From a phage: a stretch of 608 nucleotides of DNA. The notes below the pieces were generated by a model. The model saw nothing but the letters and a program-made list of their open reading frames with translations. It was not told the origin of the DNA and searched no databases. How positions within the stretch are numbered: the first letter of the stretch is position 1; the number at the start of each line of letters is the position of its first letter. The DNA is taken from the sequence record AF056250.1; one strand, written 5' to 3'. The position numbers and the translations under genes are program-made. Positions 1 to 608 of the stretch are shown here, in pieces.

Positions 1-535
1 TATTAGACGNGNACTTNGGCGATCTATGGTCTGGAAANCAATGCAGTTTTACGCATCCTTTGCATGTTACCTTTGCATTAGCAGAAAACGATATTCTGCA
101 AGGTATTGCTAAAAATCTGCAATTAATCGCTAAAGATGAAGCTCTGCACACTCAGATGTCTAAAGCAATCATCCAGATTATGTTCCAGCAGNNTGACAAA
201 GATCTGGTAGATGAAGCAGNGGCTANAGCACCAGCACAGCTCCTGAAAACTCTGAAAACTGAAATTGAATGGGGTCATTTCATTTTCAAAGGTCGTAATC
301 TGATTGGCTTGAATGCAGAACTTCTAGAAAAATATCTGTACTTTGTGGGGGCCGTNATGCATTNATGCACATCNGNGTTNAAAGGGCTANTCACTTAGCA
401 GTTATCAGCAAAACCGATTNCANGGATCATGAAGNGNTGGATNTACGTCGCTACAGCGTCNCGNAAGAAACCAAATGGNGNACNTACNTGTNGTCGGTTA
501 TTAAACCCNGCNGATAGNCGGAAGATNGGGTATGA
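1..535 (+). CDS. nrdB: Ribonucleoside-diphosphate reductase small subunit (class Ia R2/beta, NrdB-like); 5'-partial (window starts inside the gene); reading frame interrupted by probable sequencing errors; 3' end approximate
   Basis: Seen in sequence: ORF-track frame (codons in register with nt 60) gives TFALAENDILQGIAKNLQLIAKDEALH...EIEWGHFIFKGRNLIGLNAELLEKYLYF over 69-350. From memory of E. coli NrdB (not a database search) this aligns without gaps to [26 protein letters not shown] and [28 protein letters not shown]. Upstream, a frame in register with nt 41 reads MQFYASFAC (41-67; E. coli IRFYVSFAC) and a frame in register with nt 31 reads GLEA (28-40; E. coli ALEA). Downstream of the TAG the ORF-track frame stays open and reads KPIPW (411-425; E. 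coli NPIPW), then a frame in register with nt 446 reads V-P-Q-E...TYL (458-490; E. coli APQE...SSYL). Codon usage is strongly biased (CTG, AAA, GAA, GGT, CGT, ATC) throughout. The end at the TGA at 533-535 is a guess placed near where E. coli NrdB would terminate (about 40 residues after PIPW); the true stop cannot be fixed because 506-560 is too noisy. Confidence 0.8.
243..260 (+). repeat. Perfect tandem duplication of a 9-nt unit (ctgaaaact x2) inside the CDS, encoding LKT-LKT
   Basis: Directly visible: ctgaaaact at 243-251 and again at 252-260, followed by a partial third copy gaaa at 261-264. It is in frame and lies in an N-free stretch. It adds no length relative to E. coli NrdB in the from-memory alignment. 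Confidence 0.85.
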
Positions 536-608
536 ATTGGAAATGCTTNNAATACGCANGTTTGCCGTGGGNCCATGGGAATTNNGCCCCNCGGTAANCC
601 NNGGGGTT

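Follow-up and report, generated by a model that had tools for sequence, protein, structure and literature searches.

The window, that is, the whole stretch of DNA analysed here, comprises 608 bases, of which 40 are Ns (4 in the first 38 bases, 4 within 192-226 and 32 after 355). It is a single poor-quality sequencing read that runs from the 3' half of nrdB into the beginning of frd in a T5-like phage (Tequintavirus) near Bf23 and NBSal005. A blastn search of GenBank phages with the window matched 536 records, the best at ~90% overall; nearly all of the matches were T5-like phages of Salmonella, Escherichia and Klebsiella, and the matched gene is annotated as nrdB, the class Ia ribonucleotide reductase beta subunit. 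Escherichia phage Bf23 (OR083247; nrdB BF23_00113 / WLW40702.1) and Phage NBSal005 (QIN93153.1) provided the reference loci. The gene order is nrdA-nrdB-frd-thy in both, and the overlap between nrdB and frd is annotated in these two phages and in others. The minus-strand ORFs of the window are short (at most 51 aa) and antisense to nrdB, and scans of both strands for Rfam families at E <= 1 and for tRNAs gave nothing. The features of the window are as follows, with their basis in brackets.

1-551, plus strand: 3' part of nrdB (codon 194 to stop) of a T5-like phage (blastn, alignment and frame map against the Bf23 CDS, Pfam PF00268, matches to solved class Ia R2 proteins)
17-67, plus strand: three insertions of one base each, early in the read (~18, ~35-38 and 67, the last giving TGTTACC for TGTACC), with the frame drifting 3>1>2>3 in the first 68 bases
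68-352, plus strand: clean stretch with nrdB in its true frame, here window frame 3, and with the iron-ligand motifs FALAE and KDEALH (alignments to Bf23 and to R2 chain 7mdi_E)
347-353, plus strand: two homopolymer overcalls, GGGGGCC against GGGGC in the closest relatives, which add two bases and move the frame from 3 to 2 (alignments)
353-413, plus strand: stretch in which the real nrdB frame is window frame 2, reading RXAXMHIXVXRAXHLAVISK against RNAFMHIGVEWPSHLPVITK in relatives (frame map, translations)
396-398, plus strand: TAG, out of frame, composed of bases 2-3 of the Leu codon TTA (395-397) and base 1 of a Pro codon (398-400, CCA in relatives and GCA in the window) (frame map)
410-415, plus strand: two homopolymer undercalls, AAAACC against AAAAACCC in relatives, which remove two bases and move the frame from 2 to 3 (alignments)
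414-433, plus strand: conserved (N)PIPWIMN segment of NrdB, read by frame 3 as PIXXIMK (alignment, translation)
549-551, plus strand: true nrdB stop (TGA in relatives) masked as NNA and overlapping the frd start (ATGA) (alignment to Bf23)
552-608, plus strand: start of frd (dihydrofolate reductase; ~20 codons) in badly degraded form (alignment to Bf23 frd MITAMYAVGPNGEFGLRGKLPWG)

The encoded protein belongs to the R2 family. Pfam PF00268 (Ribonuc_red_sm) matched window positions 72-395 at 42 bits (cut-off 33.6; E = 9.5e-11), and matches to solved class Ia R2 proteins reached E = 7e-65 to 3e-62 with the full Bf23 NrdB and E = 1e-10 with the clean 94-residue translation of the window. The di-iron ligands of the second half are present: FALAEND and KDEALH of the window align with SFAFAERE and ARDEALH of the solved R2 7mdi_E, and the ligands themselves, the Glu in FA.AE and the Glu and His in DEALH, are E204, E238 and H241 in E. 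coli numbering. The window begins at codon 194, downstream of the radical-bearing tyrosine and the first-half iron ligands (E..H, Y); for these, the nearly identical protein of Bf23 has the segment FEDLHSRAYSNII, which pairs with SETIHSRSYTHII of 7mdi_E. The C-terminal tail of the Bf23 protein also aligns with solved R2, and the DNA of the window, although too degraded after 433 for translation, still aligns to that tail up to the stop.

The surroundings of nrdB vary among the relatives. Endonuclease genes lie directly upstream of nrdB in some of them, such as the nicking homing endonuclease F-TflVIII in phage DT571/2 (positions 1-33 of our locus L006) and an HNH endonuclease in phage SmurfNell (1-43 of locus L009), and are absent there in Bf23 and NBSal005; it seems, then, that insertions at the junction of nrdA and nrdB vary between phages. 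Salmonella phage KKP_3831 (OQ674103.1; 1185-1697 of locus L010) carries an extra ORF of 170 aa between nrdB and frd, annotated as 'hypothetical protein', which is unrelated to DHFR and matches the Pfam HNH_3 endonuclease family (E = 1.3e-12); the ORF probably encodes a homing endonuclease that has entered this operon of nucleotide-metabolism genes. T5-like nrdB/frd at ~90% identity also occurs in a few short records under the names of Listeria or Campylobacter phages (e.g., OR848833.1, 'Listeria phage LM 4-14-1', 3468 bp); mislabelling or contamination probably accounts for these contigs, which would then not come from phages of those hosts.

The TAG at 396-398 lies in frame 3, where it terminates the ORF 60..398. 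The initial annotation described it as the stop that ends this ORF inside conserved NrdB sequence and placed it where a sense codon is expected, close to a cluster of Ns. It is indeed the sole frame-3 stop in the whole window, the similarity to NrdB on both sides of it was borne out by alignment and by Pfam, and the Ns at 356-380 and 390 are present in the letters (356, 364, 374, 376, 380 and 390). The placement in a sense codon fails, as the true frame at this point is frame 2. This follows from a frame map, for which the window was aligned globally to Bf23 and each base was assigned its position within the codon according to the CDS annotation. In window coordinates, the true frame of nrdB is frame 3 at 68-352, frame 2 at 353-413 and frame 3 again at 414-433; beyond 433, it changes every 3-15 bases until the end of nrdB, with ~18 further changes before the real stop. 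Frame 2 of the window is free of stops from 296 to 515.

The differences that bound the frame-2 stretch are of one kind. The overcalls at 347-353 amount to one surplus G and one surplus C; the three closest relatives (Bf23, NBSal005 and FGS029) have TTT GTG GGG CGT at this site, and F-V-G-R is encoded there in one unbroken frame in 11 of 11 relatives. At 410-415, one A and one C are lost (4 As for 5 and 2 Cs for 3). All four frame-changing differences at these two sites are thus homopolymer run-length errors. The overcalls at 347-353, as well as the insertion at 67, sit in N-free stretches, so the absence of Ns does not guarantee a correct call; conversely, the presence of Ns is no proof that neighbouring bases are miscalled.

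Between the two sites, the translations separate the frames clearly. Frame 2 over 353-412 agrees with the RNAFMHIGVEWPSHLPVITK of relatives at 11 of 15 determinate residues, whereas frame 3 (AVMHXCTSXXKGLXT*QLSAK) has zero matching positions with RNAFMHIGVEWPSHLPVITKN of the relatives. At the TAG itself, relatives read CAC TTA CCA GTA (His-Leu-Pro-Val) and frame 2 of the window reads CAC TTA GCA GTT. We read the site in eleven GenBank phages of Tequintavirus and Epseptimavirus, which share 85-100% mutual DNA identity in this region. Each of the eleven has an uninterrupted nrdB of 381 codons, with TTA CCA or TTA CCT as the site codons, and the 31-aa peptide YLYFVGRNAFMHIGVEWPSHLPVITKNPIPW across the site is identical in 11/11, the only differences being synonymous; to judge from these sequences, strong purifying selection acts on nrdB in all of the 11 relatives.

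The initial annotation had also relied on what follows the TAG. Behind it, frame 3 reads Q-L-S-A-K-P-I and then NCA NGG, i.e., X-X; the reported Q-L-S-A-K-P-I-P-W is therefore correct through P-I, and its last two residues are compatible with P-W but are not a literal reading. The downstream PIPW is real NrdB sequence in frame 3, as the alignment confirmed. Of the proposed pairing with E. coli GLDLPFQTRSNPIPW, only the last residues (the PIPW end) hold; the rest is misplaced, as T5-type NrdB is longer by two residues ahead of the site, and G-L falls on E. coli G-L-D-L by coincidence, being read out of frame. The openness of the frame after 398, which had been offered as support, carries little weight: 23 of the 70 frame-3 codons after 398 contain an N, the true frame shifts ~18 times, the real stop, masked as NNA at 549-551, lies in frame 3 and is one of only two N-containing frame-3 codons able to be a stop, and 552-608 already belong to the next gene. 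An open frame under these circumstances is uninformative.

The earlier account of the stop was that of a single miscalled base. It holds that the frame is right throughout and that one miscall turned an in-frame sense codon (TAC, TAT, TGG, CAG or AAG) into TAG. Comparison with the closest nrdB, which had been suggested as a means of finding this sense codon, does yield TAC at the same three bases in relatives, and the base equivalent to 398 is C in 31 of 31 relatives (all sequences compared, including 20 IMG/VR contigs obtained with a degenerate scan that permitted C or G at this base, all 20 of which have C); a C>G difference at 398 is therefore part of the story, and nrdB does run in frame 3 before 352 and again at 414-433. 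However, the TAC of the relatives spans two codons (TTA|CCA) and is no sense codon of the gene, frame 3 over 353-413 shares no residue with NrdB, and the stretch is flanked by indels of +2 and -2. Correcting base 398 alone would leave an open but wrong 20-residue peptide instead of NrdB. As a complete explanation, the single miscall is refuted by the frame map, and we regard it as very unlikely. With regard to substitutions, C>G accounts for 3 of the 6 in 353-413 (CCT>GCT, CCA>GCA and ACC>AGC), including the G of TAG at 398, which suggests a systematic miscall of G over C in that part of the trace.

A stop in this stretch needs little explanation once the phase is wrong. About one stop is expected by chance in a 20-codon off-frame stretch, and Bf23, when shifted into this phase, shows two, a TAG and a TAA, which makes off-frame stops unsurprising here. 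Both of these are erased in the window by other miscalls (GTAGAA to GTTNAA and GTAATC to GTTATC), and the new stop arises from TAC.

The distribution and kind of the differences bear on whether they belong to the phage or to the read. Relative to the closest T5-like relatives, the window has ~27 indels and ~22 substitutions, concentrated after base 350. Positions 68-350 match Bf23 at 276 of 279 called bases (~99% outside Ns) with zero indels. Mismatches with Bf23 among called bases number 3 of 279 before 351 and 22 of 174 from 351 to the stop (Fisher p = 2e-7), a rise from ~1% to 13%; identity per 50-base bin is 98-100% up to 350 and 82-91% thereafter. The 22 late mismatches fall on codon positions 1, 2 and 3 in the ratio 7/5/10, whereas 88% of the differences between relatives in the same codons are at third positions (Fisher p = 1.4e-5). 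Moreover, 13 of the 22 are nonsynonymous, whereas the differences between relatives are almost all synonymous, and the 22 comprise 4 transitions and 18 transversions (82%), as against mostly transitions in relatives (15:1 to 50:18). Past 413, there are 23 deletion events and 0 insertions, and the degradation runs unchanged into frd. Deletion-only errors are typical of undercalling late in a Sanger read. The blindness to codon position, the excess of transversions, the deletion-only indels and the jump in mismatches together argue for read error and against evolution, and we infer that the differences arose in base calling, not in the phage.

These statistics also weigh against the possibility that the phage truly carries a compensated +2/-2 frameshift with a premature TAG and that its nrdB is decaying or truncated, i.e., a pseudogene. 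The source would then be a T5-like phage whose small subunit of ribonucleotide reductase is inactivated or cut short at the C-terminus, and the tail that binds the large subunit would be lost. The frameshifts and the TAG are, after all, present in the given letters; yet the changes set in exactly with the Ns, increase in the 3' direction and extend into frd, and they ignore codon position, are 82% transversions and, after 413, include no indels other than deletions. In addition, nrdB is intact, and apparently under strong purifying selection, in 11/11 relatives, and the ~99% identity of the upstream 280 bases to intact genes is hard to square with a 3' end diverged by ~13%. We consider a pseudogene highly improbable, slightly more so than the single miscall.

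Least probable of all, to the point of being negligible, is recoding, whether by read-through or suppression of the amber codon (TAG) or by programmed ribosomal frameshifting within nrdB. T5-like phages carry many tRNA genes. What speaks for recoding in the window is a TAG followed by homologous sequence, and nothing further; against this, the TAG lies outside the frame of the gene, on codon positions 2, 3 and 1 of TTA|CCA, the relatives lack a TAG at the site and keep to a single frame without interruption, and the scans of the window for RNA families and tRNAs were negative. Programmed frameshifting was rejected, as the frame change is not conserved and 11 of 11 relatives use a single frame of 381 codons. 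The initial annotation had favoured a sequencing artefact over a nonsense mutation or amber recoding, and this preference is upheld by the frame map, the relatives and the error statistics.

We are highly confident that the TAG is an artefact of base-calling errors in a poor read, in which miscounted runs would have put ~60 bases out of frame. From about base 347 onward, the base caller would have begun to miscount homopolymers, giving 5 Gs for 4 and 2 Cs for 1 at 347-353; sixty bases on, the calling of 4 As for 5 and of 2 Cs for 3 at 410-415 would have restored the frame. Between these errors, the real frame would be frame 2, while the upstream ORF would run on meaninglessly in frame 3. In this wrong phase, the real CAC TTA CCA would be read as ..A CTT ACC.., and the C>G miscall at 398 would convert the phase-shifted TAC to TAG. 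The earlier proposal of one miscalled base was thus right about the TAC of the relatives and the change at 398, but mistaken in regarding this TAC as an in-frame codon and in overlooking the +2/-2 indels that bracket the stretch. If the artefact is undone, the true sequence would read TTTGTGGGGCGTAAT... and CACTTACCAGTAATCACCAAAAACCCTATTCCATGG, followed by TGA overlapping the ATG of frd. The gene itself is almost certainly intact, reading ...EWPSHLPVITKNPIPW... like all relatives.

The TAG is accordingly not a real biological feature, and there is neither truncation nor recoding at this site. A stop codon with homology in the same frame on both sides mimics a point error, a nonsense mutation or a recoding site; the cause here is instead a pair of cancelling frameshift errors, and repair requires the correction of four homopolymer lengths and several miscalls, not of one base. 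No lesson for phage biology, stop-codon recoding or gene decay can be drawn from this TAG.

The clean part of the window contains three G>A differences from all relatives: GAG>GAA at 86 (synonymous), AGT>AAT at 298 (Ser>Asn) and GAA>AAA at 330 (Glu>Lys). The base at 86, 298 and 330 is G in 22/22, 22/22 and 11/11 loci with matching flanks, respectively. Scans of IMG/VR for the A versions of 298 and 330 jointly, and then of 298, 330 and 86 singly, found no contig with them; the TAG site in the form present in relatives, used as a control, gave 20 contigs, which indicates that IMG/VR does hold T5-like phages. Among the best 25 phage records of GenBank, identity over 70-350 peaks at 97.5%, so none of these records carries any of the three variants, and the searches yielded no independent copy of this phage in which to read the TAG site. 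The three differences may reflect either true strain variation or a systematic miscalling of G as A.

In its gene order, in the overlap of the nrdB stop with the frd start and in its protein motifs, the window is the same as the nrdB loci of T5-like phages (Demerecviridae, Tequintavirus) such as Bf23 and NBSal005. At greater distance, the encoded protein belongs to the same family as the bacterial class Ia R2/NrdB proteins (E. coli R2, PDB 1rib and 1mxr; best match 7mdi_E). T5-type NrdB and bacterial R2 have in common the iron-ligand motifs FA.AE and DEALH, as well as the segment NPIPW...APQE in the C-terminal part; the T5-type protein differs from 7mdi_E in having two extra residues before the site (IGVEWPSHLPVITKNPIPW versus VG--LPAGFEGANQNPIPW). 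As for the false stop, the closest likeness is to the late-read artefacts of single-pass Sanger sequencing, namely, homopolymer miscounts, compressions and Ns: the window resembles these in the density of Ns, which rises after ~350, and also in its homopolymer indels, its exclusively deletional late indels and its codon-blind substitutions. Nothing sets the window apart from such reads, except for the minor oddity that errors of +2 and -2 cancel each other, so that the same frame looks homologous to NrdB on both sides of the false stop.
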